This document shows positions 7,704-31,514 of a stretch of 32,000 nt of DNA, one piece after another. A model generated the notes under the pieces. The model made no database searches, was not told where the DNA came from, and saw only the letters and a list, made by a program, of their open reading frames with translations. The DNA lies in the NCBI RefSeq assembly GCF_965196625.1, contig NZ_OZ239769.1, positions 60,001 to 92,000 of the forward strand. The letters run 5' to 3'. The first letter of the stretch is position 1; each line of letters starts with the position of its first letter. This DNA comes from Candidatus Saccharimonadota bacterium. Its GTDB lineage: Bacteria > Bacteroidota > Bacteroidia > Cytophagales > Amoebophilaceae. Position numbers and translations under genes: made by a program.

Positions 7704-7967
7704 CTATGGTACATTGTTTTTTTTAGCTTTACGTTTTCTAAGGAATTCATCTCTATACTTAACTGAATCTGGTCTACTTTCAATTTTTTTTCCTTTTAGA
7801 AATGCAGCCACAGCCTGATACAAGAACTCTTTTTGAGTCATGTTTTTCCAATAACAATAATCTTGAATCTTCTCAATCATATTGACTGGTAAAACTGTGA
7901 GTATTTTTCGTGTCTCAATGCTTTTATCAGTAGCAGTTGCATTACCTTGATCCCCTTCTTCTTTCAT
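7704..7967 (-). CDS. Small ribbon-helix-helix-like (CopG/ParG-type) protein, possibly a partition or regulatory relic of a mobile element
   Basis: 87 aa. KILTVLPVNMIEKIQDYC (strand plus helix) is followed by TQKEFLYQAVAAFL (second helix) and a basic tail. The fold call is pattern-based only. Confidence 0.35.
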   Translation of the reverse strand: MKEEGDQGNATATDKSIETRKILTVLPVNMIEKIQDYCYWKNMTQKEFLYQAVAAFLKGKKIESRPDSVKYRDEFLRKRKAKKNNVP

Positions 7968-8004
7968 TTTTTATTGTGTTTTGGTTGAAATTGAAGTAAC
8001 CAGA

Positions 8005-8021
8005 TCTAAATCTGATTTAGA
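8005..8021. promoter_or_regulatory. Perfect palindrome TCTAAATC-T-GATTTAGA 38-54 nt upstream of the RHH-like gene start; possible operator
   Basis: Read directly from the sequence. The functional link is inferred from RHH proteins commonly autoregulating through upstream palindromes. Confidence 0.2.
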
Positions 8022-8520
8022 AATTGTTTCTTAGTATACAATCAGCAAACATACCATATATATGCATACATATGAATATAATCAAACAATTAATACAAAC
8101 AAAGCAGTCTCTCTTTAAAAGCCCCAACACAGGGGTTTATCTAAAATCTAAACAGATTATACTACCTAGTCGACCCTGAAGTATTATTATGAGCTAGGGA
8201 TTATACTATATTTTAATATGATAATCAGCATAAATAAAAATTTATTTTACAGAGTTTATTCCATATATATTTATATATAACAACTTAACAATGAATAATA
8301 CTGGTTATCAATGTGTTTATATATTGTATATTAATAAAACTAGATAAAATACTTGTTTAGTAGATGCACATATTAATGAATTAAGTAATATTAAATATCT
8401 GTACTAGAGTAAAGAAATGGTTCGACAACTTAAAATTAAGCACACCTGATGCTGTTGATTACTCATACTACCGCAACTGGTTAACTTTATTCTTCATTGT
8501 TTACCCATTCCCTTCTCATC

Positions 8521-8553
8521 CCACCGTACGTTCAGTTTTCCCGAATACGGCGG
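8521..8553 (-). ncRNA. Group II intron domain V
   Basis: The minus strand reads CCGCCGUAU-UCGG-GAAAA-CUGA-AC-GUACGGUGG. It has a lower stem, a 2-nt AC bulge, an upper stem and a GAAA-like loop. The triad position reads CGC, as in IIC introns, instead of AGC. Confidence 0.8.
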
Positions 8554-8576
8554 CCCGACAGTCTTCTTCATAAACC

Positions 8577-9950
8577 TTACGCAAGTCTCTCAGGATACTT
8601 GATCATGCCACTATCAATGTAAAACATGCCCATTGTGTAGAGTTTGCTATTGGGATATCTTTTCCACCCAAAACCTCGGCCTTTGCTTCTATGGGTCAAG
8701 TATCTGCGAAATCGGTTATTGATAAAGCTCTGCAATTTCCGAAAAGCTTCACTGGCATTCGTATGTTTAAAATAGTTTACCCATCCTAATACTACTGGTT
8801 TGATTTGCTCCGTGAATGCCACCGGTTTGATTGGTGCTCTCCTACAAGTCAAATATTTTAATCTGTTACGAATATTTTGCTGGGATCGTTTTGATGGAGA
8901 CACATAGATGGTATTTCTTCCACTTATTCGACTTTGTCTTTTTACAAAGTTAAAACCTATGAAGTTAAACCCTTCTGTTAGTTTCGTTATATGTGTCTTT
9001 TGGTGGTTAATAGTGAGCGATAATCTCTTGGCTAATTCTGTGAATCTTTCCAGCGCTAACTTGGCACTCTTGCGACATACTAGAATTACATCATCACAAT
9101 ATCTGTGTAAGGTTGCGTTTAGTTTTTCTGGATAGCTCCTTGAATGCCATACTTGGTCTATAACATTTAGGTATATATTACTATACAATGGTGAAACCGG
9201 AGAACCCTGAGGAACACCAACTTTCTTCTTGCTTATAGCTTTACCGTGTATAACCACTGAGGTCGTGAGAGTTTGCTTGATTATATGCAACATACTGCCA
9301 TCTGCTATTCTTTTACTAATCAGTTTTAATAACTTTTCGTGTGGAATACTTGTGAAGTATGATTGAAAATCTATCTCAACTACTCCCCATGCCTGCTGGT
9401 ATAGATCGTCATGGATGGCCATACTTGCTTGTTTGGCGCCTCGTTTCGGTCTATAGCCGTATGAACATTCATGAAAATCAGCTTCGAAGATCGGTTCAAT
9501 GACTATTTTAATGGCTGTCAGCACTATGCGGTCTTCTATGGTCGTTATCTCTAGGGGGCGTGTGCCGCCTTTGGGTTTAGGTATTTCTACCAACCTGCTT
9601 GAGCTAAACTTATATAGCTTGGCGCATAATTGCTTTTGCAATTTATTGATAATCAATTCTTCACCTGCTTCTATTATATCATTTATGCTTTTACCATCAA
9701 TCCCTGCTGAACCCTGGTTCGACTTGACTTGACGCCATGCCTCCCAAAGTACATCTGATCGATATATTTTATCGTATAGACTATAAAATCTGACTTCCTT
9801 ACTTTGCTTGGATTTAAGATATAGAGTTCTTTGGAGTTGCCGAACTTTTTGTGTTCCGTTCATAGCGTTTTTGCAATCAGACATTCTCAACTCTTTTAAA
9901 CTCGTTAACTGAAGTAGGGTCCCTTCCCTCTTGACTGGTTTCTCAATCAA
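8577..9950 (-). CDS. Group II intron reverse transcriptase/maturase (no HNH endonuclease domain)
   Basis: 457 aa. It has RT motifs SYGYRPKRGAKQA, VEIDFQSYFTSIPH, GVPQGSPVSPLYSNIYL and RYCDDVILVC (YxDD). The maturase X motif is LGWVNYFKH. The C-terminus ends without Cys/His HNH motifs. Confidence 0.93.
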   Translation of the reverse strand: MIEKPVKREGTLLQLTSLKELRMSDCKNAMNGTQKVRQLQRTLYLKSKQSKEVRFYSLYDKIYRSDVLWEAWRQVKSNQGSAGIDGKSINDIIEAGEELIINKLQKQLCAKLYKFSSSRLVEIPKPKGGTRPLEITTIEDRIVLTAIKIVIEPIFEADFHECSYGYRPKRGAKQASMAIHDDLYQQAWGVVEIDFQSYFTSIPHEKLLKLISKRIADGSMLHIIKQTLTTSVVIHGKAISKKKVGVPQGSPVSPLYSNIYLNVIDQVWHSRSYPEKLNATLHRYCDDVILVCRKSAKLALERFTELAKRLSLTINHQKTHITKLTEGFNFIGFNFVKRQSRISGRNTIYVSPSKRSQQNIRNRLKYLTCRRAPIKPVAFTEQIKPVVLGWVNYFKHTNASEAFRKLQSFINNRFRRYLTHRSKGRGFGWKRYPNSKLYTMGMFYIDSGMIKYPERLA

Positions 9951-10385
9951 TACTAACGGTACTATAAACCCCGCGGACTTCTGATATGACCCCTATTGAC
10001 TTCGCTTTACTTATACAATAAAGTTTCCAGTGGCCTACTGGATTCATATCAGATCTCCCGACCTACGATGTGATACATTCATAGCGTGCAACCCCTATCA
10101 CCCCGGCACTTGTAAGATGGATATGATCTATTTTTTTTTCCATCCTACTATCAGCCTTCCTGCTCTGACTAGGCAGTCGGCAAGTGCTCTTTAATTATTA
10201 ACGAGGCTAATTTGGGTTCACTTTTGTTGCAGCCCGCTATTTTGCAGATTATTAAAGGTAACTTAGGCCTGTAAGTCGCCTCACAAACCCAACCTCCTGC
10301 TAGACTCTCGAAATAGACAAATTAGAGTCTGGGGACTTTCACCCCATTTGTTTCACACCTGTACCGGCGTGCAATCAGATAAAAA

Positions 10386-11836: not shown

Positions 11837-12130
11837 GGATGAACGGCTACATTTAATTATTTTCTACTGATTTATAATGTTTTACAAAAATGATGATTTG
11901 TACAAAAAATGGTATATTTTCTTATTTTTAGTTATAGTGTAAAAATCTTTGCATTGAAAATCATTCATCTGAAAATTAATTATAAATTAAGCAATTTTCA
12001 TACTATACTCATAATCAACATTAAGTTTTGTACAGAATGTAGGTTAAAAACTTATTTTTCAATTCTAGGGCCATATATAAAAAAAGTGTCATGCAATGAT
12101 TAACACACTGCACGACACAAAAAAATAAAA

Positions 12131-12240
12131 GATGGCAACTACCTACTCTCCCGCGTTTTACCGAAGTACCATCGGCGCTGCTGGGCTTAACTGCTCTGTT
12201 CGGAATGGGAAGAGGTGCACACCAGCGCTTTCGTCACCTT
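12131..12240 (-). rRNA. rrf: 5S ribosomal RNA
   Basis: The reverse complement contains ...CCCAUUCCGAACAGAGCAGUUAAGCCCAGCAGCGCCGAUGGUACU...GGGAGAGUAGGUAGUUGCCAUC, the canonical 5S core. It is ~110 nt and lies ~100 nt downstream of the 23S 3-prime end. Confidence 0.9.
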
Positions 12241-12337
12241 TATTTTTAATCTTTTAATGGTCGGTTTTTACACCCACTATACAAACTACCTTAAGGTATT
12301 AATTGACTACTGTAAAAGCAAAATCAAGAAAAAAACA

Positions 12338-15230
<2,893 letters not shown>

Positions 15231-18268: not shown

Positions 18269-18854
18269 AAAAATAGCACCAGTTCAAAGATTGTGGCATA
18301 AGTAACAATCATTTTATTTGTTTTTACCTGGTATTCACTTAGATCAGTAATAAAAAAGAAACTTATATATCATACTTTTTGATCAAGCAAAATAGCATGC
18401 AATGATCAATAGCCTTCTAAGATATGTCTTTAAAACGATTTGCTTGTTGAACGGATAAAAGTCTTCTGCTATAGCATCAAATCTAAGTGTATATTGTCTG
18501 ACTATCTTTCATTGACAGCATTATTGAATTTGTTTAAACAGGTCATCATCTAGCTTTTTATATGTTTGGACTTTAGGCTTTGGTTGTAGCAATAAATAAT
18601 GTGCAGCCAGCATCACTAAGCCATTAGTGAGTATAGAAACAAAGGTACCACTGGTTGCGCCCACTATAAGGCTCATCCATTTGTCCCAAGCTAATAGGGT
18701 GAGTAAAGCTGAAGCCATACCCAGCAAAGCAGTACGAGAAATACTACGAAACCCTAAAACAGCTTATGCAAAGGACTACTCCCAAACGGATAAATTTATT
18801 GCATACCACATGGATATCTTACAAAAGATAATGATCATTATTCAATAATATTAA

Positions 18855-19377
18855 AAAAATCCAAAAATTCTAGGGATTGAGTGTATTGCTTCAGTAGTTG
18901 CCGCAGTGGGCACCATAGAGGCAGGTAGTTTGAACTATTTGGTGCAACTGGCTGAATTATGCATCAGAAAACATCCACGTCGCATCATATACATTAGCCC
19001 TATGGTAACGTATGCGATTACATTTTTAGGTGGTACCAACCACATCGCTTACTCCATTCTTCCTGTTATTGCAGAAGTGTCTAAAGAAGTGGGCATTCGT
19101 CCGGAACCTCCCTTTAGCCCTTTCTGTTATTGCAGCTTTGCACGGTGCGCTTGCCAGTCCTATTTCCTCTATAATGGTTATTTTAAGCGGATTTGGAATA
19201 GAAATGATCACCATTTTTAAAATTACAATTTCCGCAACGACTGCGATGGGTATATATTCTTTAAATAATCTAATATACTTTATATTTCCGTTCTCAAATT
19301 CTACACTTGAAAAGGTAAATAATAAAAAGAAAGCAGACAGTATAAGAATAATACGCATAATTGTCTATGTTAATTAA
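18855..19377 (+). pseudogene. Anaerobic C4-dicarboxylate transporter (DcuA/DcuB family) relic: N- and C-terminally truncated and frameshifted near ~19100
   Basis: GSLNYLVQLAELCIRKHPRRIIYISPMVTYAITFLGGTNHIAYSILPVIAEVSKEVGIRPEPP is collinear with E. coli DcuA GGLDYLVHQTEKLLRRNPKYITILAPIVTYFLTIFAGTGNISLATLPVIAEVAKEQGVKPCRP. The continuation PLALSVIAALHGALASPISS (compare PLSTAVVSAQIAITASPISA) is in another frame. Only ~150 of ~430 residues are represented. Confidence 0.7.
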
Positions 19378-21566: not shown

Positions 21567-23027
21567 TTAGACTATAGGCACATTAATCCATTTATGATTT
21601 GCTTCATCCCAAGTAAACAATCTTGGTTGCGCAATATGGACCGCATACTCGACATAGGCCTTTGATGGCCTAGGGCCTAAGTGTAATGCAGTACCAAATG
21701 CATAAAAAGGAGATAAATCAGTATATTCTATAGTAAAGTATTTTTTAGCGATTAATGATGGAATCACTTCTACCAGTTCTTTCAGGTTAGACACTAATTT
21801 TGCATTAAAAGATAGCACTTTAAGCCTAAAATCATGCTTAGCCCTATCGGGGGAAACATGACTAAAAATATGGTTGGCATCTGCATAAAAAAAAGTCAAG
21901 CTTTTATCAGGTATACCACTTATTTGAGCAACATAATCATCCATTTCAAAAAAGATTGCCCCTCCAAAATGGACCATTTTAGTGATTTTATGGAGGTTAA
22001 GATCATAAAGGCCCACTTTGATATCATGCCACTGACCCATTCTAAAAATGGTTAATACCACCTCATCTTTAGTAGCCTTATTCATAGCCATATCAAAATC
22101 AACCAAATTAGGGCCTATTTGCTGGCCATTAATGGCCCAAACTACATCTCCAGGCAAGAGCAAACCAGCTGCAGGGCTACCCGCTAAGAGATGATCTACT
22201 GCAATAATAGAGGTGGCGCCACTGGGAAATCGCTTGATATATGCTTGTTGGACAGATGGCTCCAACCCATCATACCGAACTAAATCTTTAATAGGTATAG
22301 CTTTAGTAATAACGCCAACTTGTCTCCTAACAGGAGATTTACCTTTCCGAATAGCGGACAAAGCATACCGAATATATTCAGGATGGATCGCAAAGCCAAA
22401 TGTTTGATTAACAGCATAATTCAGCGCTATGGCCTGCCCCTGCCTATTAAAAATAGGCGAACCACTTGACCCACCTTTGGTATTTAAACTCAGCTTAATC
22501 GATTGCTGAGGCATAGCGCCTCCAATCTCATACAAATCTGCTACGACCCCTGTATGCAAAGAAAAGCTATACCCTTCATTATTCCCAACGATAAAAATAG
22601 GCTGATCCATAACGGGATTACAAGGACTAAAGATGGTTTCAGTCACCTCTTGTGGAATAGATGTAGGTGCAACTTGTAAAAATCCATAATCCAACCATGG
22701 ATCATAATAGACCAAATGGGCATCTTGTTGGATGCCATTAAAAAAGGTCACTTGGTAGCTACCCACTACCGCAGCGCCTATTACATGCTGGTTGGTTAAG
22801 ATATATCCATTTTTTTTATCTACCACACAACCCGTTCCATTCCACTTGCTGCCTTTACCATAAGCTGCAAAAGAAGCATTGACTGAAATGGTGACTACTG
22901 ATTTTTTAGCCTGCTCAATGCATTTTTCAGAAAACGCCTCCTTAGCGAAAAGCATAGGCGCATGGCATAAAAAGGCAAAAAGCATCACCCAACATTTAGG
23001 TTTTAAAAAATTCATTTTCATAAGCAT
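21567..23027 (-). CDS. Secreted trypsin-fold serine protease with two PDZ-like domains (HtrA/Nma111-like), catalytic triad intact
   Basis: A signal peptide MKMNFLKPKCWVMLFAFLCHAPMLFA is present. The triad is His in GYILTNQHVIG, Asp in LDYGFLQV, and Ser in TKGGSSGSPIFN. The first PDZ has LLAGSPAAGLLLPGDVVWAINGQQIG. A second PDZ-like region has FGGAIFFEMDD...LSFNAKLVSNLKELVEVI. Confidence 0.85.
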   Translation of the reverse strand: MLMKMNFLKPKCWVMLFAFLCHAPMLFAKEAFSEKCIEQAKKSVVTISVNASFAAYGKGSKWNGTGCVVDKKNGYILTNQHVIGAAVVGSYQVTFFNGIQQDAHLVYYDPWLDYGFLQVAPTSIPQEVTETIFSPCNPVMDQPIFIVGNNEGYSFSLHTGVVADLYEIGGAMPQQSIKLSLNTKGGSSGSPIFNRQGQAIALNYAVNQTFGFAIHPEYIRYALSAIRKGKSPVRRQVGVITKAIPIKDLVRYDGLEPSVQQAYIKRFPSGATSIIAVDHLLAGSPAAGLLLPGDVVWAINGQQIGPNLVDFDMAMNKATKDEVVLTIFRMGQWHDIKVGLYDLNLHKITKMVHFGGAIFFEMDDYVAQISGIPDKSLTFFYADANHIFSHVSPDRAKHDFRLKVLSFNAKLVSNLKELVEVIPSLIAKKYFTIEYTDLSPFYAFGTALHLGPRPSKAYVEYAVHIAQPRLFTWDEANHKWINVPIV

Positions 23028-23093
23028 TTTTAATTTTAAAGAGCTCTTAAGCTCATCTAAACCAATCTATAGACTTCTTTCGAAACGCGATGG

Positions 23094-24587
23094 CTAATGG
23101 CCATTTTTTGGTTGCAGCTGGTCTATGCCGGTTAAAACAATGTCTTGACCTTTCCATTCGAGATGGATGGGATCCCACGCCCAAACCTTGGGTGGTGCTA
23201 AGTTAGCGTCATATTCTACATCGACCTTATAACGATTGTAGGAAAATGAATAGAAAACCCCATGTTCCATTGGCAAGTGATTGATGTACGCAACTGTAAA
23301 GTATTTTTCATGCACCAATTGGGGAATCAGTGCAATCAATGCATCCAATGTTTGAACAGGCTTACCATTAATCGCCAAACATTCCATACCTAAAAGGCTA
23401 AAACGCTCCCGTGGCCAAGCAGGTACTTTGAAAATAGTATTCGATTCTGCAATACAGGCAACCAATGTTTTAGGTGCAAGACCGGTCAGTGTACTAAAGA
23501 AATCATCTGTTTCAAAAAAAGTAGCACCACCAAATTGAACCATTTTAGTTATGCGATGGCTGTTTAAGTCGTAAGGAGCTATCGCAACATCATGAAAAGC
23601 GCCTTGTCTAAAAATGGTTAAGCACAGTTGGTCCTTCGATTTATCAAGCGCTCTATCAAAATCTACTAGATTAGGGCCAACGAACTGACCATCAAGTGCC
23701 CAAATTAAATCCCCAGGTAAAAGCTTACCGGCTGCTGGTGTGCCTTTTAGTATACTATCTACTTGCAAAACTTTATTTTTTGCATCTTTAAATTTTGTGA
23801 TGTATGCTTTTTGCGAGACCGGGTCAAGGTGGTCGTAACGAACGGCATCATCTAGTGAATAGGTAGTTAGTAAAGCACCAATATGCTTTCTAACGGGGTG
23901 TTTTTTCTGCTTTAAGAAAGGCAACACATGCGCTATATAGCTTAGCGGTAAGCCGACATCCATGGTAGCTGACCCAGCACAATTTAAGGCAATACCTTCT
24001 CCAGCAGCATTGAAAATCAAAGAACCAGTTGCGCCACTTTTGCTAGGCATACCCACACGAATAAAGTGCTGCGGCATGGTCCATGGCATACTATAATTCA
24101 GATCATCTATGCTGCCCGTATAGAGTACAGCAGGCTTGTCTTTTGCTTTAGCAACCGTAAAAACAGACTGACCCAACAATGGGTTTTTACTACTGAACTT
24201 TACCGCCTGAATTTCTTTAGGAAGCAGGGATGGATCGACCTGTAGCAGGGCAAAATCTGCCCAAGTATCGTAATAGAGCAATTTGGCTGGAGCCTCTACC
24301 CCATTAAAAAAGCCAACGGTATAATCTGCAACCATACAAGGTCCAATATTCATACCAGAAGTTAAAATATAGCCTAGTTGCTTATCTATTACAACGCCAT
24401 TGCCATACCACTCTCCAGGCGGACTATAAGCAGAAACGGCTGCACGGCTCTCAATACAGACAACAGACTGCTTGGCATTTTTAATGACATTAGGTTTAAA
24501 TGCTGTAGCCTTACCATAAGAAGTGGAATAAGCGCACACGGCTAAAAAGCCCCCTAAAATAGCAGATAAAAGATTTTTATAACGCAT
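23094..24587 (-). CDS. Paralogue of the adjacent protease with catalytic His and Ser substituted (predicted pseudoprotease), signal peptide retained
   Basis: It is collinear with 21567..23027 over its full length. GYILTSGMNIG aligns to GYILTNQHVIG (His to Met). SKSGATGSLIFN aligns to TKGGSSGSPIFN (Ser to Thr, Pro to Leu). Asp is retained (ADFALLQV), and the PDZ blocks are conserved (LKGTPAAGKLLPGDLIWALDGQFVG). Confidence 0.8.
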   Translation of the reverse strand: MRYKNLLSAILGGFLAVCAYSTSYGKATAFKPNVIKNAKQSVVCIESRAAVSAYSPPGEWYGNGVVIDKQLGYILTSGMNIGPCMVADYTVGFFNGVEAPAKLLYYDTWADFALLQVDPSLLPKEIQAVKFSSKNPLLGQSVFTVAKAKDKPAVLYTGSIDDLNYSMPWTMPQHFIRVGMPSKSGATGSLIFNAAGEGIALNCAGSATMDVGLPLSYIAHVLPFLKQKKHPVRKHIGALLTTYSLDDAVRYDHLDPVSQKAYITKFKDAKNKVLQVDSILKGTPAAGKLLPGDLIWALDGQFVGPNLVDFDRALDKSKDQLCLTIFRQGAFHDVAIAPYDLNSHRITKMVQFGGATFFETDDFFSTLTGLAPKTLVACIAESNTIFKVPAWPRERFSLLGMECLAINGKPVQTLDALIALIPQLVHEKYFTVAYINHLPMEHGVFYSFSYNRYKVDVEYDANLAPPKVWAWDPIHLEWKGQDIVLTGIDQLQPKNGH

Positions 24588-24754: not shown

Positions 24755-26056
24755 CTAAATCTTTCTGCCTAATTCTTTTCCAGTTTCATATACCTTCTTG
24801 GGTAGTACCTTCTTAGCAAATTTTTGCATCCGCCTCCAAAAACTGGCTTTTTCCTTCATACCCTCTAATTTTGCTTTTAGATCCAACCCTTTACGCAAAC
24901 TATCCGCTCCACTTGCTGCGGCTGCCGCAGCTGCTGCACTACCCGCTACACCAGCAGCTGCAATATTGCCCGCTTTAAAACGACTACCTTGCTCTGCAGC
25001 GCTACCACCACCTGTTCCAGCACCAAGGGTTGCACTACTTTTTGCAGATTTAGCCGGACTACTGCCTGCTGAAGGGCTGCTACCAGCTGCGCCAGATTTA
25101 GTTGAACCGCTACCCTTTCCAGGAACAGCAGCCCCTCCAGATCCAGATATAGGTGCACCACTACCCGGTCCATGCCCTCCTCCACCAATGCCACCGCCAC
25201 TGCCACCAGGCCCATTACCAGCCACACCGCCTTTATTCGGACCGCTAGGAGCAAGAGCAGCACCAGGCCTAGAAGAATGAGCAGCGCCCACACCAGAATC
25301 ATAACCGCTAGAACCACTCGAGTCAACATTCGAAACAGAAGGATGAGAACGCGCACCACCACTAGATGAAGCATAAACCGGCCCACCAGCACCATTTGAT
25401 CCATGATAAACCTGATCAGGCCCTCCATCATAGGCACCAGGTGGCGCACCACTATAAGCGCCAATACCATTAGGGGTGGGTGCAAAAGACTCCTGACCAG
25501 GTGTATCTTGGCTAGAATGAGCTTTTCGATTTGAAGTGGCATTTGCACCAGATGGCTTGGCGTAATCGCTATCCACACCAGCGGCAGATTTGCCCGTTCC
25601 TACAGGAACCAGCTCTTCCAATACAACTATATGTGCCTCTGCTCGAACCAGTGTACCATCTACTTGGAACATAGAATAGACGATATTTAAATCTTGTAGC
25701 CTACCTTTAAAATCAATTTGCCCCCAGATGACACGGATGTAATTAGGCGCATTGTTTTTTTTATGGATGCTATAGGCAACATCTTGCAATTGCTTAACTT
25801 GTTCCATAACCGCAATGGCATTGCTGCCAGGTATAATACCGGTATTGTCAAACAAAAGGCTAAAAGAAAGCAACTTTGGAGAAGAGCCACGGTATTTAAG
25901 CGCATTATAATTCGCTATTCCATGAGGCACACCATAAGATACTGCACTTTTGATCGCTAAGTTCTCTGGATTAATAGATGTAATAAACTCTCCTGTAAAA
26001 GAGGAAAATTTATTATCACTACATCCTTTAATAACGAGTTTACTAACTTTGCTCAT
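24755..26056 (-). CDS. Contractile-injection-system tube-initiator-like protein (Afp7/Pvc7-type N-domain) fused to a long Gly/Ser/Ala/Pro-rich low-complexity region and a basic C-terminal helix; no LysM
   Basis: The N-terminal ~150 aa reads KLVIKGCSDNKFSSFTGEFITSINPENL...LLSFSLLFDNTGIIPGS...APNYIRVIWGQIDFKGRLQDLNIVYSMFQVDGTLVRAEAHIVV. This follows the Afp7-family pattern (K.tI.ay.d..f....f.v.iNPes, LsfeflfDgTGv, rPnyl.l.WG...fkc.l.sl.i.YtlF..dGtPlRAka). Residues ~155-385 are G/S/A/P-rich. The tail is KGLDLKAKLEGMKEKASFWRRMQKFAKKVLPKKVYETGKELGRKI. Confidence 0.75.
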   Translation of the reverse strand: MSKVSKLVIKGCSDNKFSSFTGEFITSINPENLAIKSAVSYGVPHGIANYNALKYRGSSPKLLSFSLLFDNTGIIPGSNAIAVMEQVKQLQDVAYSIHKKNNAPNYIRVIWGQIDFKGRLQDLNIVYSMFQVDGTLVRAEAHIVVLEELVPVGTGKSAAGVDSDYAKPSGANATSNRKAHSSQDTPGQESFAPTPNGIGAYSGAPPGAYDGGPDQVYHGSNGAGGPVYASSSGGARSHPSVSNVDSSGSSGYDSGVGAAHSSRPGAALAPSGPNKGGVAGNGPGGSGGGIGGGGHGPGSGAPISGSGGAAVPGKGSGSTKSGAAGSSPSAGSSPAKSAKSSATLGAGTGGGSAAEQGSRFKAGNIAAAGVAGSAAAAAAAASGADSLRKGLDLKAKLEGMKEKASFWRRMQKFAKKVLPKKVYETGKELGRKI

Positions 26057-26074
26057 AACTACAGATGAATAATT

Positions 26075-26248
26075 TTACCTTGCTTCCCGATCTTCTAGCA
26101 AGTGTAACAAGTCTCTGGCTAGTTCTATTCTTTGCTGCTCCGTAGTATTCGATCCAAGACCATCTAATGTAGTCTTATCATGCTCCCCTTGCACATTGCT
26201 TTCATAAACCTTAACCTGGATGACTAGTTCATTAATTTTAACAGGCAT
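26075..26248 (-). CDS. Small CIS protein, Afp6/Pvc6-like (DUF5908-type); start moved to the internal Met
   Basis: From the ATG at 26248 it reads MPVKINELVIQVKVYES.... The MPIxIxELxIxxxV opening and the ~57-aa size match the small conserved protein found between the tube and Afp7 genes in eCIS loci. The longer 75-aa ORF start (26302) is less likely. Confidence 0.6.
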   Translation of the reverse strand: MPVKINELVIQVKVYESNVQGEHDKTTLDGLGSNTTEQQRIELARDLLHLLEDREAR

Positions 26249-26339
26249 AATCCATAAAATTAGTTTTGCATCTCCCTTTTGAAACCGCTTTTTAAATAGC
26301 AACTTTTTTGCCGAAGCTGTGGCCTATACTCCATAGATA

Positions 26340-26798
26340 CTACTTGGTTCGTACAAGTCTAGAATAGCCAATCGTAATGGTTTCCCCTACGCCAAATTCT
26401 GTTGGACCACTTAGCTGAAAGGGAGTGATGGCTATACCCTTTGGATAAACATCCTCTATCTTCCACTGTGCCAGGATCTTACCCTCTTTATTAAGGACCA
26501 AAATATGGGCCTGGGTAAGTTTAAAAAGGCCTTTATCAATGGCTTCTTCGCACCAAAGGGTTATTTTGGTTTTACCTTCTACTAAGGGCCTGGTCAAGAT
26601 TAAATCAGTAGTATCACATGCATTGGATCTATAATAAGGCCTATTAGCCCCCCCGGGTAGATAGGCTTCCATACTCAAAGAATTATTTAACCCTTCTACC
26701 TTATAGAAATATTCTGGGGAACTACCATCTGTAATACCCAATACTTCTACTCGAAAAGAATGCGAATGCACTACATTAAAATCAGCCATACCTATCAA
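26340..26798 (-). CDS. Contractile tail/CIS inner tube protein (T4 gp19 / Afp1-Afp5 family)
   Basis: HSFRVEVLGITDG...YFYKVEGLNNSLSMEAYLPGGANRPYY......DLILTRPLVEGKTKITLWCEEAI follows the gp19-family pattern (F.v.i.g....f..vsGL..e.e..ey.eGG.n.......yp.L.L.RG......l..W). The start could be the Met at 26789 (MADFNVV). Confidence 0.85.
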   Translation of the reverse strand: MIGMADFNVVHSHSFRVEVLGITDGSSPEYFYKVEGLNNSLSMEAYLPGGANRPYYRSNACDTTDLILTRPLVEGKTKITLWCEEAIDKGLFKLTQAHILVLNKEGKILAQWKIEDVYPKGIAITPFQLSGPTEFGVGETITIGYSRLVRTK

Positions 26799-26821
26799 AA
26801 CAATGTTAAAACCATTATGCG

Positions 26822-26970
26822 CTTAGACTTCTTTCGAAACTCGCTTGTGCTGAGGAATTTGTAGAAGACACGGAGTGCAAAACCGCAGCGTACTAGATAT
26901 ACGTAAGGATTTTAGCAACCGGATCGACAAGCAAATTACCAGCAGAAGTTAGCATTTCAAAAGAAATCTA
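26822..26970. repeat. ~150-nt imperfect palindrome filling the intergenic gap between two CIS genes
   Basis: The outer arms TAGACTTCTTTCGAAAC (26823-26839) and CATTTCAAAAGAAATCTA (26953-26970) pair. The inner arms TTGTGCTGAGGAATTTG and CAAATTACCAGCAGAAG pair at ~15/17 with one bulge. The centre is near 26895. See the finding. Confidence 0.7.
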
Positions 26971-27426
26971 TTACTTTTTATCTGGATTCAAGCCTTCTAA
27001 AGTAAAGCGTATACGGATATAGCCCATTTCACCTGTAGCCTCGTTCTTTCTATTTAAAAACAACTCTGCTTTTTGTACGATAACATCATTTACAGTTGTT
27101 TTAGTATCTATTGAACCATCTTTTTTATGTACACAAAGGGTAAATGGTGCTGCCTCATACTTGTCCTCAAGCACTTCCTGTACCAAACTATATGCTTTTA
27201 CTAATAACTCTTTCCCAGTTATAAAGGGTAAAAACTCTACAGTAAAAGCTACCACTTCTTGTGCACTATGTTGATTCTGAAAAAGGGGTGCTTTGGTTGC
27301 TGTATCATATACAGCTGCTTTAGTAGATACTTTTTGATTGGGCATCCCAACAGCTGAAACACTACAGGTCTTGCTATCAAAGCCTGCTTTATTAAAGTGT
27401 TTATAGTCAATAGTTACTCTTTGCAT
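26971..27426 (-). CDS. CIS-operon protein of unknown family, 151 aa; possibly a divergent tube/Hcp(TssD)-fold paralogue
   Basis: It sits in the operon between the sheath and the gp19-type tube, and its size is tube-like. The C-terminal ...EMGYIRIRFTLEGL resembles the C-terminal strand of Bacteroidota TssD/Hcp-like proteins. The assignment is weak. Confidence 0.4.
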   Translation of the reverse strand: MQRVTIDYKHFNKAGFDSKTCSVSAVGMPNQKVSTKAAVYDTATKAPLFQNQHSAQEVVAFTVEFLPFITGKELLVKAYSLVQEVLEDKYEAAPFTLCVHKKDGSIDTKTTVNDVIVQKAELFLNRKNEATGEMGYIRIRFTLEGLNPDKK

Positions 27427-27487
27427 AATATCTCAAATTCTAGTTAAACTGCTTAATATCCGAAAACTCCATCATGAACACAGCAAG

Positions 27488-27952
27488 CTATTTTTTAATT
27501 ACAAAACTAACTGGATCATAAACAGCAAGATCGGCAGTCACTTCCTGAAGTCCCGTTTCATCATCTACCTCGCTGCTCATCTCACTAACATAACCCTGGA
27601 ATTGTATATGTGTAAATGGTTTATCATCATTGGTGGCAATGCTAAAAAGCATATTTTCCACATATTTTTTAGGATCATTCTCCTTCGTGGCATCTAGGTT
27701 TTTTTCTATTTTCTTAATATCATCATCAAATTTCTTATCTGGTGTTTTAAGTACAGAAACCTTAATATCAGTTGCTTGCCCAATCTCTCCTCCTTTTCGT
27801 ATCGCATAGACGGATTTACCTTGTGCATTAATTGATCTAACATATTGGGATCCATTCTCTAAAGAAATAGCTATGTGGTAATCCGTTATACTAACCTTCG
27901 AAGAGCCTAAATTAAAATGGACTATAGCAGGTATCAGCAAATTCTCAGCCAT
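27488..27952 (-). CDS. CIS-operon protein of unknown family, ~154 aa from the Met at 27952; possibly a divergent tube/Hcp-fold paralogue
   Basis: It lies immediately downstream of the sheath gene, where Afp-type loci place a tube gene. It begins MAENLLIPAIVHFNLGSSKVSITDYHIAISLENG... and is rich in beta-strand patterns. The ORF-track start (27991) adds 13 poorly plausible residues. Confidence 0.4.
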   Translation of the reverse strand: MAENLLIPAIVHFNLGSSKVSITDYHIAISLENGSQYVRSINAQGKSVYAIRKGGEIGQATDIKVSVLKTPDKKFDDDIKKIEKNLDATKENDPKKYVENMLFSIATNDDKPFTHIQFQGYVSEMSSEVDDETGLQEVTADLAVYDPVSFVIKK

Positions 27953-28035
27953 GGTTGTTTTAGTTTTAAATGTTTTTAAAGTTATAAACAAAATATAGGG
28001 GGTAATATACCCCCTATAGACGCATACCTAAATGG

Positions 28036-29523
28036 CTAACCGTCTGCACCCATTTTTTGTTCAAAAGTGATCACAATAAACTCAGCTGGTCTAGGCGCTG
28101 CTACTTTTACGGAAATACGCATGATGCCCTCATTTACGTCATCTTGCGACATAGTCTCACCCAATCCGCAGAGGACCGTAAATGCCTCTGCAGGGCTTGC
28201 ACCGACTAAGGCACCTTGTCGCCAAAGATTGGTTAAGAAGTTGGAAATCATGCCCTGTACAACGGCCCAGGTAACGGGAACGTTTGGCCTAAAGACAACG
28301 GAGAAGGCCGCATTTTTAATCGATTGCTCAATAAGAATAAACAACCTTCTGACGTTAATATACCTCCATTCTGGACTATTGCCCGCTAGGGTTCTAGCGC
28401 CCCAAACGACTGCTGCACCGGCCCCTTTAAAGGTACGGATGGCATTGATGGATTTACCGCTAATGCCATCTACGTTGAGTGCTTCTTGCTCTTCATGGGT
28501 AATCTTAACCATTGGCTCCACAACAGAGTTTAGATTTTGATTGGCCGGCGCAATCCATACCCCTCTTGCTTTATCGGTTCTGGTGTAGAGCCCTGCCATC
28601 GCAGGAGCGGCTGGAAGAATATTCAACCGATCTGCAATGGTTTTGCGCAATAGCTTGTACTCCTTACTGGTATTTTTTAGCCCAGCATCCCAATAAACTT
28701 TCTCTTTCTCTGTAGTCGCACTAATTAAGTTAGAGAGCATGGTTTTATGCTCCTCTTGCAATACACACTTGAGCGACTCTAGATCAAAGTTTCTATAATC
28801 AATGCTATTCAATGGGATAATGTTTGTTTTAACCCATGGATAATAGGCAGCACCATAACTCAAATTATCTAATCCAATATATTCACGAAACCTGTTTACA
28901 TATTTGTTTTTATCTTCAATAGATAATTCATTGTTGCCACCCCATATATCAAATAAGGCAACTTTATTCAGATATTTACCGCAATGCGCAAGCCCGTAGG
29001 TCTGTACAGCATAGTAAGAGGCATCTTCTTCATCTAATAAGAGGGAGTCTGGCATTAACAACATGGTGGGCACCTCTTCTCCAGCTAGGGTATCGATGCC
29101 TTGCTTGAATACATCTGGTGTAATCTCTAACTGTGCATTTGGATCACCATACTGACCGACAGAAACAATAAAGCAGTCTGCACCACCATTATCAAAGAAT
29201 AGCTTTAAACTATTATATAGGTAAAATGTAGAGTTTGCACTCTGTTCCATCACATAAGATTTGCCATTCATAACCAAATCTTTATCTCCACTGGTTACCT
29301 CTTTAATGGTATAGACAGGCACTGCTGGCCCTCCAAAAAATAACTCATATTCAGAAAGCGAAGAGATCTGAACGGGTTTCATATGAAAAGACTTTCCATT
29401 AATTTCAGCTCTTTCAGTGAAACCTATAAAAGCAGGAACTGCAGTTGATACTTGAACCACGGCGTTGGCACCCGTATCCTTCTCGACGATGTACACGCCG
29501 GGAGTTTTTAAATTTTCAGCCAT
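28036..29523 (-). CDS. Contractile sheath protein (phage tail sheath / Afp2-4 / TssC-like family)
   Basis: 495 aa. The N-terminus MAENLKTPGVYIVEKD....VSTAVPAFIGFTE is the classic sheath opening (PGVY.eE....i..v.TsvaaFvG). The C-terminal block is ISGKSINAIRTFKGAGAAVVWGARTL...WRYINVRRL. Confidence 0.93.
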   Translation of the reverse strand: MAENLKTPGVYIVEKDTGANAVVQVSTAVPAFIGFTERAEINGKSFHMKPVQISSLSEYELFFGGPAVPVYTIKEVTSGDKDLVMNGKSYVMEQSANSTFYLYNSLKLFFDNGGADCFIVSVGQYGDPNAQLEITPDVFKQGIDTLAGEEVPTMLLMPDSLLLDEEDASYYAVQTYGLAHCGKYLNKVALFDIWGGNNELSIEDKNKYVNRFREYIGLDNLSYGAAYYPWVKTNIIPLNSIDYRNFDLESLKCVLQEEHKTMLSNLISATTEKEKVYWDAGLKNTSKEYKLLRKTIADRLNILPAAPAMAGLYTRTDKARGVWIAPANQNLNSVVEPMVKITHEEQEALNVDGISGKSINAIRTFKGAGAAVVWGARTLAGNSPEWRYINVRRLFILIEQSIKNAAFSVVFRPNVPVTWAVVQGMISNFLTNLWRQGALVGASPAEAFTVLCGLGETMSQDDVNEGIMRISVKVAAPRPAEFIVITFEQKMGADG

Positions 29524-29568
29524 TTTATTTGATTTTATGAATTATATATAAATTAAATGAAGTTTAAA

Positions 29569-30429
29569 TTAAACATATACAACTATATCGCTATAGCGTT
29601 TCTTTGTATTGCTTTTATCCTTTTTGAGCGAATCATAGGTAGGATAAGGCAATTTTTCTATTAATATGGTTTCTCCTTTTGTGCCACCAAGTTTACAAAG
29701 CGAAAAAGAACGATCGTATCGATCGCAAAGTTCCATAGGCTTGGTAGACTCTGCACAATAGGTATTCGGCAACTCAGAAGAAGCCTTTACAACACTAAAG
29801 TAAGAAGGATCCCCTTCAGATAAAATACCCAATGGTCCATTAAGCTGATTTTTGGTATCTACTACATAATACCGCCAAAAGGTAGAACGATTTTTAACTT
29901 TAATGGCATAGGTAACAGGCGCAGGACAACGGCTATCTTTTTGCTTGGATAGGGCATGCGCCCAATGGGCCAGATCTATATCAATCATTGCAAAAACATT
30001 CCAACCTGGCTCAGTAGGGTAATGCACCACCTCCTGAATCTTAACCAGATCAGCACTGCTCATAAAAGTTTTACGGTGCAACGAATGGTTATTATGGGTA
30101 TGCCCATTGTGTAAATAATAGACGGCTCCCGTTGGGTAGCCAGCCTCTAACTCAGAAAGATTTAATGCTTGGCTATTTTTTAATGTCATGACAAAAGAGA
30201 GGGTAATGCCCTCTGCTTTTTGCTGAAACAACGTCAGTGGATCATCATAGTGCTGTGAAAGCCATATCAATTCTATGCCATCTGGATGGTCCAAGAGGCG
30301 CACCCTACGTGCTGTCAGCCAGGCAGCAGTAGACTGAGTAGGCTGAATGGCAAAATCATTCTGGACATTACCGGATTTATAATAATCATTCGAAATAGCG
30401 ATCCGAAATAATTTGGTTGTAAATGCCAT
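29569..30429 (-). CDS. Hypothetical protein, 286 aa, encoded between the cap-like and sheath genes of the CIS operon
   Basis: It is a clean ORF, 5 nt from the upstream gene and 45 nt from the sheath gene, on the same strand. I recognise no domain. Confidence 0.6.
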   Translation of the reverse strand: MAFTTKLFRIAISNDYYKSGNVQNDFAIQPTQSTAAWLTARRVRLLDHPDGIELIWLSQHYDDPLTLFQQKAEGITLSFVMTLKNSQALNLSELEAGYPTGAVYYLHNGHTHNNHSLHRKTFMSSADLVKIQEVVHYPTEPGWNVFAMIDIDLAHWAHALSKQKDSRCPAPVTYAIKVKNRSTFWRYYVVDTKNQLNGPLGILSEGDPSYFSVVKASSELPNTYCAESTKPMELCDRYDRSFSLCKLGGTKGETILIEKLPYPTYDSLKKDKSNTKKRYSDIVVYV

Positions 30430-30434
30430 AGCGA

Positions 30435-30995
30435 TTACCTTTCACGTGATGAAAATGCAGATACTACCTTTAAACCCATTGTAGCATCTCCTATAAATAT
30501 AAGCCCTACCTTATACAACAAAGAAGGACTATAAGGCGTATGTAACGTTTTCCAAAGGATAGACTTTTCTGATGGCGTCATTTTAACGAGCTCAACCGAA
30601 AAACTTTCAATCCCGAGTTCTTGTAAAACAGGGGTATTGGAAGTATCAAAGTGTGACTTACTTTGAAAAAATGCTGCAACATAAGCCAGTAATTCTAAAT
30701 TTTTTAATAGGTCAGATAGTTTATAATCAGTAGAAAATAAAAAATAAAGATTAAATGCTTCTGGCCTTTTGCGTAAGATAAAACCATCTGCCTGTGGCAC
30801 ATATTGCGTAGGATTGCTGCACAACTCTACTGAAGTAATATCTACCAATCTCATAATAATTCCCTTTGAAGACTTACTTTCTACCTGAGAATTTCCTAAG
30901 ATTGACAAAGATATAGCTGGCTCCTTTACATTCGATTTAGACTGAATGTATTGATTTACCTCAGACAATATAGTGTGCGTGCAATGATGTAGCAT
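30435..30995 (-). CDS. DUF4255 / Pvc16_N-type protein (Afp16-like tube-sheath terminator cap)
   Basis: 186 aa. ...IIMRLVDITSVE...RKRPEAFNLYFLFSTDY...LELLAYVAAFFQSKSHF....ILWKTLHTPYSPSLLYKVGLIFI fits the DUF4255 layout (Lvni.ee, p..lnLyyLi.a, l.ll..v...f, lW..l....rPS..Y.v). It is the first gene of the operon, as in many Bacteroidota CIS loci. Confidence 0.78.
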   Translation of the reverse strand: MLHHCTHTILSEVNQYIQSKSNVKEPAISLSILGNSQVESKSSKGIIMRLVDITSVELCSNPTQYVPQADGFILRKRPEAFNLYFLFSTDYKLSDLLKNLELLAYVAAFFQSKSHFDTSNTPVLQELGIESFSVELVKMTPSEKSILWKTLHTPYSPSLLYKVGLIFIGDATMGLKVVSAFSSRER

Positions 30996-31044: not shown

Positions 31045-31072
31045 AAGCGCAAAAAACAGGCTTGCTAGCCTG
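31045..31072 (-). terminator. Rho-independent-type terminator on the minus strand between atpC and the CIS operon
   Basis: The minus strand reads CAGGCTAGCAAGCCTG (6-bp stem, 4-nt loop) followed by TTTTTTGCGCTTTTG. It lies ~190 nt downstream of the atpC stop and ~50 nt upstream of the DUF4255 start. Confidence 0.5.
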
Positions 31073-31259: not shown

Positions 31260-31514
31260 TTAATGGCCTTGTTCGATAGGGTCACAAACTACTATAAGCT
31301 GGTTGTCGGCTATTGAGGTAAAACCACCCTTTACTGCAACGGAGGATGACACTGCTCCAACGCTATAGGTGATCTGCCCAGCTACCAAACTGCTTAGCGT
31401 AGGTGCATGATGGGAAAGTACCTGAAATGGACCAAGCGCACCTGGCAACATTACATGATCCACCACTCCATTAAAAATGCTACCATTAGGCGCTATGATA
31501 GATAGATGCATCAT
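31260..31514 (-). CDS. atpC: F-type ATP synthase epsilon subunit (short, beta-sandwich-only form)
   Basis: MMHLSIIAPNGSIFNGVVDHVMLPGALGPFQVLSHHAPTLSSLVAGQITY....VAVKGGFTSIADNQLIVVCD follows the AtpC pattern (l.i.tP....f.g.v..v.lPg..G.fgvL..HaP.it.L..G.i......aV.gGf.ev..n.v.vl). Confidence 0.85.
   Translation of the reverse strand: MMHLSIIAPNGSIFNGVVDHVMLPGALGPFQVLSHHAPTLSSLVAGQITYSVGAVSSSVAVKGGFTSIADNQLIVVCDPIEQGH

Follow-up and report, generated by a model that had tools for sequence, protein, structure and literature searches.

The closest described counterparts of the locus reported here are the T6SS subtype iv (T6SS-iv) of Amoebophilus, published by Bock et al. 2017 (as cited in PMC8831229 and PMC12342168), and its homologues in Cardinium. 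In the Cardinium strain cEper1, Penz et al. 2012 (PMC3486910, Table S5) found an eight-gene block, CAHE_0456-CAHE_0463, as one of five separate regions, and listed its genes singly as orthologues of Aasi_1072-1079. According to a 2025 review (PMC12342168), T6SS-iv homologues occur in every sequenced Cardinium, and the inner-membrane-attached 'microfilament-like' arrays seen in these cells are attributed to T6SS-iv. Solved structures are available for clade Ib of the eCIS, i.e. for AlgoCIS (7adz/7aeb; PMC8894135), SalCIS (9r9h/9r9n/9rce; PMC13266070) and the Anabaena tCIS (7b5h/7b5i). In clade Ia, with Afp of Serratia entomophila and PVC of Photorhabdus, there are three paralogous sheaths and toxin cargo genes, and the cap has two domains and comes without a cap adaptor. 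In this clade the cap gene sits at the cluster end.

The window analysed here is a stretch of 32 kb from the chromosome (1,158,289 bp, 1.16 Mb) of the Cardinium endosymbiont of the bug Nabis limbatus. It contains eight co-oriented minus-strand ORFs (30995..24755), all intact, that encode in this order Cis16A, Cis16B, the sheath, a tube-fold protein, a conserved 151-aa protein, a Cis5-type protein, the Cis6 plug and the Cis7 initiator (g1 to g8). The eight genes are 1:1 collinear orthologues of Aasi_1072-1079 of Amoebophilus asiaticus 5a2 (29-77% identity), and both gene content and order are identical in cEper1, a different strain from a different host. The module is very probably the cap-sheath-tube-initiator part of the Cardinium T6SS-iv, split from the spike and baseplate loci on the same chromosome, and none of the results speaks against this. 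The initial annotation had seen a contractile injection system (CIS) module in these genes, and Pfam matches well above chance for five of the eight proteins (g1, g3, g6, g7 and g8) bear out its sheath, tube-family and cap assignments. It had also described the gene order as departing from canonical loci; this is not a new departure, since the order is the same as in the Amoebophilus T6SS-iv and is the usual arrangement in eCIS clade Ib. The window module and the Amoebophilus system have the clade Ib parts list in common, namely the Cis16A + Cis16B double cap, sheath, Cis1 tube, Cis5/Cis7 initiator complex and Cis6 plug, and the clade Ib structures give sequence or fold matches to g2, g3, g4 and g6. 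The SalCIS operon also begins with a cap gene. Three of the ORFs as listed start with TTG; these starts are probably too far upstream, since the gene calls of orthologues and the position where the profile begins favour a downstream ATG.

At the cap end, g1 (30435..30995, minus strand) encodes a Cis16A/Afp16-N-like cap protein of 186 aa with a single domain. Its residues 6-171 match Pfam Pvc16_N (E 7.9e-21), its identity to Aasi_1072 is 39%, and its size and single-domain build agree with those of Alg16A of AlgoCIS (197 aa, PMC8894135). The second gene, g2 (29569..30429, minus strand), encodes 286 aa with no Pfam match and had been described as an unknown. However, a profile made from 13 orthologues identifies it as the cap adaptor Cis16B: it matches PDB 9r9n_C, 'SalCis16b - cap' (1.2e-7), over nearly the full length, as well as 7adz_1A, the AlgoCIS 'cap adaptor protein' (3.4e-7), and 7b5i_AB, All3326 of the Anabaena tCIS (5.4e-7). 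The protein is 34% identical to Aasi_1073. The combination of cap and cap adaptor matches clade Ib (AlgoCIS, SalCIS, tCIS). The labels cap adaptor, tube fold, Cis5 and plug are assigned here; in PMC3486910 the corresponding cEper1 entries are 'n.d.'.

The sheath protein Cis2 is encoded by g3 (28036..29523, minus strand, 495 aa), which matches Phage_sheath_1C (E 9.4e-11). Its identity is 77% to Aasi_1074 and 91-98% to the sheaths of other Cardinium (95-96% to C. hertigii strains). Its best PDB relatives are the sheaths of SalCIS (1.9e-122), tCIS (6e-90) and AlgoCIS (2.5e-89). The clade Ia sheaths are also homologous to it (E 1e-50 to 1e-35), and the homology of Afp and PVC extends to the tube, the initiator of Afp7 type and the Afp16 cap in its N-terminal domain. 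Myophage tails also share the sheath, tube and gp19 families, and the window has mobile elements close by (IS110 transposase, group II intron, TraG-like gene), all of which would suit a prophage tail module or the remnant of a defective phage (tailocin). This origin, already dismissed in the initial annotation, is effectively refuted, and we give it next to no probability. The sheath is nearest to CIS sheaths (E 1e-122 to 1e-35, as opposed to ~1e-7 for T4 gp18), and the CIS-specific parts, i.e. the Pvc16_N cap, Cis16B cap adaptor, DUF5908 plug and CIS_tube initiator, are all present. A Pfam scan of the other window ORFs found no capsid, portal, terminase or integrase gene, no lysis genes occur in the 32 kb either, and none of these is found in the cEina3 contig, which covers 10 kb upstream and ~7 kb downstream. 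Moreover, every Cardinium genome examined has the block at this position, between atpC and housekeeping genes.

The product of g4 (27488..27952, minus strand; 154 aa from the preferred ATG at 27952; listed as 27488-27991) has neither a Pfam match nor a PDB sequence match. Its high-confidence AlphaFold2 model, computed from a 24-sequence alignment (pLDDT 92.5, pTM 0.78), finds only tail-tube/Hcp proteins in the PDB by Foldseek, with the best TM-scores (0.64-0.70) to the Cis1 tubes 7b5h_AN, 9gts_1a and 7adz_1a, so that we describe it as a tube-fold protein (29% identity to Aasi_1075). Most likely it is the main inner tube (Cis1/Hcp-like); since the Foldseek E-values are slightly better for Afp5/Pvc5 than for the Cis1 tubes, it is the TM-scores, the gene order and elimination that support this predicted role. 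The protein annotated at first as the gp19-type tube is g6 (26340..26789, minus strand; 149 aa from the preferred ATG at 26789; listed as 26340-26798; 40% identity to Aasi_1077). Its family membership stands (Phage_T4_gp19, E 6.7e-12). The profile scores best on the baseplate-only chains 9rce_I (5.1e-20), 7aeb_Y (2.3e-17) and 7b5h_AM (2.4e-8), and reaches just 3e-6 to 7e-5 on the main tubes 9r9h_B, 7adz_1a and 7b5h_AN. In sequence, g6 is thus nearest to the Cis5/Afp5-type tube adaptors, and it would form the first tube ring on the initiator.

Of the two proteins of ~150 aa that had been left as unknowns, one is therefore g4 with its tube fold, while the other, g5 (26971..27426, minus strand, 151 aa), is a conserved protein with no Pfam or PDB match and no assigned fold. 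It is the orthologue of Aasi_1076 (33% identity). Comparison with the Cis5 family by hhalign was not significant (E 0.046 across 70 in-register columns), the single-sequence AlphaFold2 model has a pLDDT of 39, and no counterpart was found among the solved chains of AlgoCIS, SalCIS and tCIS. A metagenome search returned six loci, all Cardinium- or Amoebophilus-like by identity, and g5 was seen only in Amoebophilaceae-type loci.

The small protein g7 (26075..26248, minus strand; 57 aa from the preferred ATG at 26248; listed as 26075-26302) is the Cis6 'plug'. It matches DUF5908 (E 8.9e-6) with 26.9 bits, slightly below the Pfam cut-off of 27.7 bits; within the ORF as listed the profile begins at residue 19, and the gene call for its cEina3 counterpart has 57 aa. 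It is the orthologue of Aasi_1078, which was aligned with the Alg6 plug in the AlgoCIS paper (PMC8894135). The last gene, g8 (24755..26056, minus strand, 433 aa), encodes the Cis7/Afp7 tube initiator (CIS_tube, E 1.6e-31). An N-terminal tube domain (residues 3-147; 52% identity to Aasi_1079) is followed by ~235 aa of G/A/S-rich low complexity (G58 A45 S42 among 235 residues) and, at the C-terminus, a basic segment. Pfam finds no LysM domain in g8 even at E<=1, whereas the orthologues in loci L012 and L013 carry one (5.2e-5 and 8.2e-3), the Amoebophilus-type Cis7 retains a LysM-like C-terminal domain, and Alg7 and SalCis7 bear LysM domains. The loss of LysM from the Cardinium Cis7 is the only real difference that we found with respect to related systems, and the earlier proposal of altered assembly or length control is not supported. 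In AlgoCIS the LysM domain is in contact with the baseplate wedges, so the junction of tube and baseplate may be different in Cardinium. It is this missing domain, together with g2 as cap adaptor, the tube fold of g4 and the Cis5-like nature of g6, that the present analysis adds.

The spike and baseplate genes are located elsewhere on the chromosome. VgrG (WP_419241269.1), PAAR (WP_419241270.1) and gp25 (WP_419241271.1) are encoded on the same contig as the module, outside the window. Within it, Amoebophilus VgrG, PAAR, gp25 and Afp12-like queries gave 0 tblastn matches, and the Pfam scan of the other ORFs found no spike, PAAR, gp25, baseplate-J, tape-measure or AAA+ genes. The initial annotation was thus right that head, baseplate, spike and ATPase genes are absent from the window and that the module is half of a split CIS in an obligate Bacteroidota symbiont. 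About 180 kb lie between the sheath module and the VgrG-PAAR-gp25-Afp12-like locus of the complete cOegibbosus genome. In Amoebophilus, a gap of ~870 bp after the eight genes is followed by VgrG, PAAR, gp25, an Afp12-like gene and a CIS_TMP protein, whereas the Cardinium block stops after Cis7; AlgoCIS and SalCIS, in contrast to the split Cardinium system, were published as single clusters of 18 ORFs. The split layout is real but ordinary, as the scattering of these genes in Cardinium, which the annotation had mentioned, was published in 2012 (PMC3486910). The flanks were also read correctly. Upstream lies atpC (31260-31514; ATP-synt_DE_N, E 1.2e-18), separated from g1 by 264 bp in which a terminator-like hairpin (31057..31072, minus strand; CAGGCTAGCAAGCCTG then TTTTTT) marks the boundary of the module, and downstream lie two HtrA-like proteases. 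The same context is found in C. hertigii cEhis1 and cEina3, and wherever the upstream flank of a Cardinium-type locus was covered, atpC is the neighbour on that side.

Genome reduction, the frameshifted IS110 and the DcuA/B fragments, the MITE within the operon and the loss of LysM could also be taken as signs of decay; the module would then be a relic that no longer functions, one half of an ancestral cluster broken up by genome rearrangement. We consider this very improbable. The genes are intact in 15 of the 15 other genome loci examined, wherever the contig covers them, and these loci span deep Cardinium divergence (dS up to >2). All eight genes are under purifying selection: against five of these loci, dN/dS is 0.02-0.23 with the exception of g7, which has 57 aa and reaches up to 0.56 (one of its comparisons could not be computed). 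The individual ranges are 0.11-0.22 for g1, 0.09-0.19 for g2, 0.02-0.03 for the sheath, 0.05-0.10 for g4, 0.05-0.13 for g5 and 0.06-0.09 for the N-terminal domain of g8. The spike and baseplate genes persist in the same genome, and in cEper1 all 15 T6SS-iv genes are transcribed, with high levels for the orthologues of the window genes and the sheath among the top-expressed (Mann et al. 2017, PMC5698495).

By analogy with Amoebophilus, AlgoCIS, SalCIS and the Cardinium literature, we infer the following course of assembly for this T6SS-iv. Spike and baseplate proteins from the other loci (VgrG, PAAR, gp25 and, in relatives, Afp12-like, Afp11-like and further proteins) would build a baseplate at the inner membrane. 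The VgrG spike would carry the rings of Cis7 (g8) and Cis5 (g6), and the small Cis6 plug (g7) would occupy the lumen. g4 would then polymerise as the inner tube and the sheath around it in an extended, high-energy state, with g1 and g2 terminating and stabilising the distal end, and sheath contraction may expel tube and spike from the bacterium into the host cell. A released extracellular CIS like Afp, PVC or AlgoCIS is the alternative to membrane anchoring. Clade Ib holds both modes (AlgoCIS, SalCIS and tCIS differ from T6SS-iv in being released or thylakoid-anchored), the closest solved structures, AlgoCIS and SalCIS, were purified as particles, and sequence alone does not tell the mode of action. 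Nevertheless, we regard release as unlikely: by far the nearest characterised relative, the Amoebophilus T6SS-iv, is described as acting from within the cell, the arrays of Cardinium are parallel and attached to the inner membrane (PMC12342168), and particles freed by lysis would be of little use to a vertically transmitted, obligately intracellular symbiont. It is also very improbable that the module alone builds cytoskeletal sheath-tube filaments (the 'microfilament-like structures') without baseplate or injection. The operon is indeed physically apart from the baseplate genes, sheath expression is very high and sheath proteins can self-polymerise, e.g. the Saprospira SCFP fibrils as cited in PMC3486910. 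But Cis5, the Cis6 plug and the Cis7 initiator are baseplate-proximal parts that make sense only on a spike, VgrG, PAAR and gp25 are kept in the genome, and the baseplate genes are co-expressed in cEper1 (PMC5698495).

Two spacers of the T6SS-iv module deserve a comment. Directly 3' of the sheath stop, a G+C-rich hairpin with an 11-bp stem and a T-run (27994..28018, minus strand) resembles a terminator; the sheath-g4 spacers of loci L007, L008, L010 and of Amoebophilus (L001) have a hairpin of different sequence at the equivalent position, and we consider it a candidate intra-operon attenuator or 3' stabiliser. The g5-g6 spacer, ~24-28 bp long in L004, L006, L007 and L008, here contains a palindromic MITE-like element (26824..26970) with terminal inverted repeats TAGAYTTCTTTYGAAAY (3 matches vs 0.08 expected) and a folding energy of -51.9 kcal/mol (z -3.5). 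This insertion distinguishes the window from cEper1, and in L004 and L006 a member of the same family occupies the sheath-g4 spacer. The frameshifted IS110 transposase, the group II intron, the TraG-like gene and the DcuA/B fragments fit the general picture of a reduced genome with many pseudogenes and mobile elements.

The eight minus-strand ORFs that the initial annotation had read as a contractile injection system module are all present where it had placed them (g1 to g8, in the order cap, cap adaptor, sheath, g4, g5, g6, g7 and the Cis7-like initiator g8), and the profile-HMM searches that it had proposed give family-level support in Pfam for five of the eight proteins. The cap protein g1 (30435-30995, minus strand) matches Pvc16_N (E 7.9e-21), the sheath g3 (28036-29523, minus) matches Phage_sheath_1C (E 9.4e-11) and Phage_sheath_1 (E 1.2e-6), g6 (26340-26798, minus) matches Phage_T4_gp19 (E 6.7e-12), g7 (26075-26302, minus) matches DUF5908 (E 8.9e-6, i.e. 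0.8 bits below the Pfam cut-off), and g8 (24755-26056, minus) matches CIS_tube over residues 3-147 (E 1.6e-31). The 286-aa g2, 167-aa g4 and 151-aa g5 proteins have no match in Pfam or NCBIfam. The sheath is identical to RefSeq protein WP_419241498.1, annotated as belonging to the Cardinium endosymbiont of Nabis limbatus, and g8 is WP_419241493.1 of the same organism.

The order and orientation of the eight genes correspond one to one to Aasi_1072-1079, the T6SS-iv genes of Amoebophilus asiaticus. In that locus (L001) the proteins are Pvc16_N (193 aa), a 282-aa protein, the sheath (498 aa), proteins of 167 and 148 aa, gp19 (154 aa), DUF5908 (59 aa) and CIS_tube (377 aa), and for each of the eight window proteins the best L001 match (29-77% identity) is its positional counterpart. 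The sheath is 77% identical to Aasi_1074 of strain 5a2 over 494 aa (E 0), and 91-98% identical to the sheaths of other Cardinium strains and Cardinium-like Amoebophilaceae MAGs. The same correspondence is on record for C. hertigii cEper1, where CAHE_0456-0463 were equated one by one with Aasi_1072-1079 (Penz et al. Table S5, PMC3486910).

The two lineages differ in what follows the block: in Amoebophilus it continues into VgrG, PAAR and gp25, whereas in Cardinium it stops after Cis7. In L001, some 870 bp beyond CIS_tube, there are genes for VgrG, PAAR, gp25, an 831-aa protein and a CIS_TMP protein. The comparison was extended to fifteen more loci in species-representative genomes. Of the five Amoebophilus-type loci (sheath 74-78% identical), L001, L012 and L013 run on into VgrG, and in the other two (L011 and L014) the contig stops short of this. 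Every Cardinium-type locus (sheath 86-98% identical) contains the eight-gene block as far as the contig reaches, with atpC upstream wherever that flank is covered, and none of them has VgrG, PAAR, gp25 or an Afp12-like gene downstream of the block; the break after Cis7 is thus lineage-wide and not specific to the window. In L014, a low-GC Cytophagales MAG, a cap (g1) homologue was not detected. A 644-aa ORF (7180-9114 of that locus) lies directly upstream of its cap-adaptor gene and looks Clp/AAA+-like by eye, with the Walker-type motifs GDPGVGKT and GPSGVGKT.

The absences originally noted in the window hold in the Pfam analysis of its ORFs, i.e. there is no head, portal, terminase, spike, PAAR, gp25, baseplate-J, tape-measure or AAA+ gene, and tblastn searches with the VgrG, PAAR, gp25 and Afp12-like proteins of Amoebophilus give no match in the window. 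The spike and baseplate homologues for which a search of the rest of the genome had been suggested were recovered outside the window, on the 1,158,289-bp contig that carries the sheath. VgrG (WP_419241269.1, 597 aa) was found with a Cardinium-specific VgrG fragment, the Nabis limbatus orthologue not being among the matches listed for Amoebophilus VgrG, and PAAR (WP_419241270.1) and gp25 (WP_419241271.1) were found in the clusters of the cOegibbosus proteins; the linkage in the source genome is thus shown indirectly, by cluster membership and the shared contig. The three consecutive accessions (269-271, as opposed to 493-498 for the module) tentatively suggest, by their numbering, a single locus of its own, well away from the window. 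On the complete chromosome of cOegibbosus, the genes for VgrG, PAAR, gp25, a 113-aa protein and an Afp12-like protein lie at about 534 kb (L019), flanked by transposases and a group II intron reverse transcriptase, and the sheath module (L007) lies at about 714 kb, i.e. about 180 kb away. Dispersal is also visible in cEper1, in which CAHE_0763-0760 correspond to Aasi_1080-1083, CAHE_0036/0037 to Aasi_0556/0557, CAHE_0118 to Aasi_1806 and CAHE_0409 to Aasi_0232 (Table S5, PMC3486910). Afp11/12-like, tape-measure and fibre genes were seen in relatives only (including PMC3486910). The core of the initial interpretation, one half of a split contractile injection system, is therefore correct: the module is collinear with T6SS-iv, and VgrG, PAAR and gp25 are on the same contig.

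A prophage or myophage tail was considered and rejected, as linked head, portal, terminase, integrase and lysis genes are absent, both from the window and from 10 kb upstream and about 7 kb downstream of the orthologous locus in C. hertigii cEina3. Nor does the module qualify as a canonical T6SS (subtypes i-iii), which has a two-part TssB/TssC sheath, ClpV and a TssJLM membrane complex: its sheath is a single phage-type protein (Phage_sheath_1/1C) instead of TssB/TssC, and no Tss or ClpV family occurs among the window ORFs. The readings as a free-standing filament and as a released particle (eCIS) were also rejected. A decaying relic was likewise rejected. No locus has a disrupted copy of any of the eight ORFs within the stretch that its contig covers, and the pairwise dN/dS values between the window and five loci are 0.02-0.03 in the sheath gene and 0.05-0.23 in the remaining ones, the values for g7 (0.16-0.56) being noisier in a protein of only 57 aa; taken together, these rule out neutral decay.

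According to the papers on AlgoCIS and SalCIS (PMC8894135; PMC13266070), T6SS-iv belongs to eCIS clade Ib, and we compared the module with the features of this clade (AlgoCIS, SalCIS, tCIS, MAC and T6SS-iv). It has one sheath gene only, and the best PDB matches of the sheath are SalCIS (1.9e-122), tCIS (6.1e-90) and AlgoCIS (2.5e-89), those to Afp/PVC being 1e-50 or weaker. A double cap is present, since the 186-aa g1 consists of Pvc16_N alone and is accompanied by g2. The g2 profile (alignment A1, 13 orthologues) matches SalCis16b nearly over its full length (1.2e-7), the AlgoCIS 'cap adaptor' (3.4e-7) and All3326 of the Anabaena tCIS (5.4e-7), and these matches identify g2 as the Cis16B cap adaptor. 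In clade Ib, Cis16B forms a second hexamer beneath the cap and is required for correct sheath termination (PMC8894135; PMC13266070). A cap gene in first position is also found in the SalCIS operon (PMC13266070). The lumen plug Cis6 is represented by g7, a DUF5908 protein orthologous to Aasi_1078, which the AlgoCIS authors align with the Alg6 lumen plug (PMC8894135). Most of the departures from 'canonical' loci that had been claimed are what normally sets clade Ib apart from clade Ia.

The tube proteins need some discussion. The best PDB matches of the g6 profile are 9rce_I (5.1e-20), 7aeb_Y (2.3e-17) and 7b5h_AM (2.4e-8), all of them chains confined to baseplate reconstructions, while the main tubes score only 3e-6 to 7e-5. 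Given this preference, the gp19-type g6 is classed as a Cis5-like protein, the first ring on the initiator. Structure prediction, which had been proposed for the unassigned proteins, led to a tail-tube/Hcp fold for g4 (154 aa if counted from the ATG at 27952). In a full HMMER search, no more than 27 of 1.84 billion representatives prove to be related to g4, and an AlphaFold2 model built on the alignment of these is confident (pLDDT 92.5, pTM 0.78). The PDB matches that Foldseek gives for the model are nearly all tail-tube/Hcp proteins, with a probability of 1.00, and the top TM-scores (0.64-0.70) belong to the main tubes of tCIS (7b5h_AN), Streptomyces CIS (9gts_1a) and AlgoCIS (7adz_1a). Sequence and profile searches with g4 against the PDB and Pfam found no match, so that its assignment comes only from the predicted structure. 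Its fold and its place in the gene order, together with elimination, make g4 the leading candidate for the main tube. For g5, sequence and profile searches found no match in the PDB or Pfam, and a single-sequence AlphaFold2 model (pLDDT 39) is unusable. Profile alignment with hhalign places g5 in register with the Cis5 family at a non-significant E of 0.046, and gives no significant alignment with the g4 and g6 families. Homologues of g5 are confined to Cardinium- or Amoebophilus-like loci, and a metagenome scan found six close loci only.

The lineage-specific points are limited to g5 and to a Cis7 that lacks LysM, and both are minor at present. After its N-terminal CIS_tube domain, g8 continues with about 235 low-complexity residues rich in G, A and S and a conserved basic C-terminal segment (alignment A6); these C-terminal two thirds occupy 24755-25612 on the minus strand. 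LysM was not detected at E<=1 in the window g8 or in its Cardinium-type orthologues in L010 and L017, and it is found at the corresponding place in the Amoebophilus-type Cis7 of L012 (5.2e-5) and L013 (8.2e-3). In AlgoCIS and SalCIS, the LysM domain of Cis7 touches the wedges or the spike (PMC8894135; PMC13266070). Its absence is a lineage-specific loss within the family and no ground for excluding the module from clade Ib. One may speculate that Cardinium has rewired the proximal end of the machine, the LysM domain being swapped for a disordered G/A/S linker and basic C-terminus and g5 being kept, so that the two would make up a novel interface, either between tube and baseplate or for array formation, for example one that bundles parallel 'microfilament' arrays. 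We consider this unlikely, even though g5 is strongly constrained, restricted to Amoebophilaceae and without a counterpart among the solved CIS components.

The arrangement described here is lineage-typical and already published. The existence, content, split layout, conservation and expression of the module were reported between 2012 and 2017 and restated in a 2025 review, according to which all sequenced Cardinium have T6SS-iv homologues, membrane-attached parallel arrays have been reported in Cardinium, and the parallel columns that gave the genus its name are probably intracellular parts of T6SS-iv (PMC12342168). Four more strains likewise have T6SS-iv homologues (2025 comparative genomics, PMC12560110), and PMC8831229, citing Bock et al. 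2017, calls the T6SS-iv of Amoebophilus functionally characterised. As T6SS-iv is thought to be the main route of Cardinium effectors into host cells, possibly including cytoplasmic-incompatibility factors, the genes of the module matter biologically. The window adds one further strain with the same arrangement and some modest gains in annotation (cap adaptor, tube-fold protein, Cis5 as opposed to Cis1, loss of LysM from Cis7), which became possible through structures solved in 2022-2026.

The gaps between the module genes are 5-181 bp. The interval from atpC to g1 contains a terminator-like hairpin (31057-31072), and another, with an 11-bp stem and a T-run, directly follows the sheath stop codon (27994-28018, minus strand). 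Hairpins of other sequence occur at the same position, the sheath-g4 spacer, in L007, L008, L010 and the Amoebophilus locus L001. We speculate that the post-sheath hairpin may be an attenuator causing partial termination, or a stabiliser of the transcript that raises sheath output or excess. The 181-bp gap between g5 and g6 is due to a MITE-like palindromic element of about 147 bp (26824-26970) with TAGAYTTCTTTYGAAAY termini and a fold of -51.9 kcal/mol (z -3.5). It has a partial copy at 23070-23086 and is not present in the g5-g6 spacer of other strains. L004 and L006, from Cardinium sp. TP and the Tipula unca symbiont, have a related element between the sheath gene and g4. A sigma-70 promoter scan found 22 sites versus 24.4 expected from shuffles; the Bacteroidota promoter consensus differs, and no promoter was called.

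According to Pfam, the other window ORFs include a TraG/VirD4-like coupling protein (1052-2902), an IS110 transposase in two probably frameshifted ORFs (3184-4159), an ankyrin protein with six repeats (6604-7407), a group II intron reverse transcriptase, thyA, D-Ala-D-Ala dipeptidase, a phosphoesterase, ogt, tatD and atpC. The group II intron (8577-10339, minus strand) has a D1-D4 RNA match at 10091-10339 and its reverse-transcriptase/maturase ORF at 8577-9950; a similar reverse transcriptase flanks the VgrG locus of cOegibbosus. The 23S and 5S rRNA genes (12130-15227, minus strand) stand without a 16S rRNA or tRNA gene in the 32-kb window, i.e. in an unlinked rRNA arrangement. A DcuA/DcuB transporter pseudogene (18521-19377) retains a fragment of about 100 aa. 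Directly downstream of the module there are two tandem paralogous HtrA/DegP-like serine proteases (21567-23027 and 23094-24587, minus strand; Trypsin_2 and PDZ), both with N-termini that resemble signal peptides by eye. Cardinium sp. TP lacks both proteases, and tatD follows the module there. C. hertigii cEhis1 and cEina3 have the pair, and in cBtQ1 only the second is intact and the first is a C-terminal remnant.
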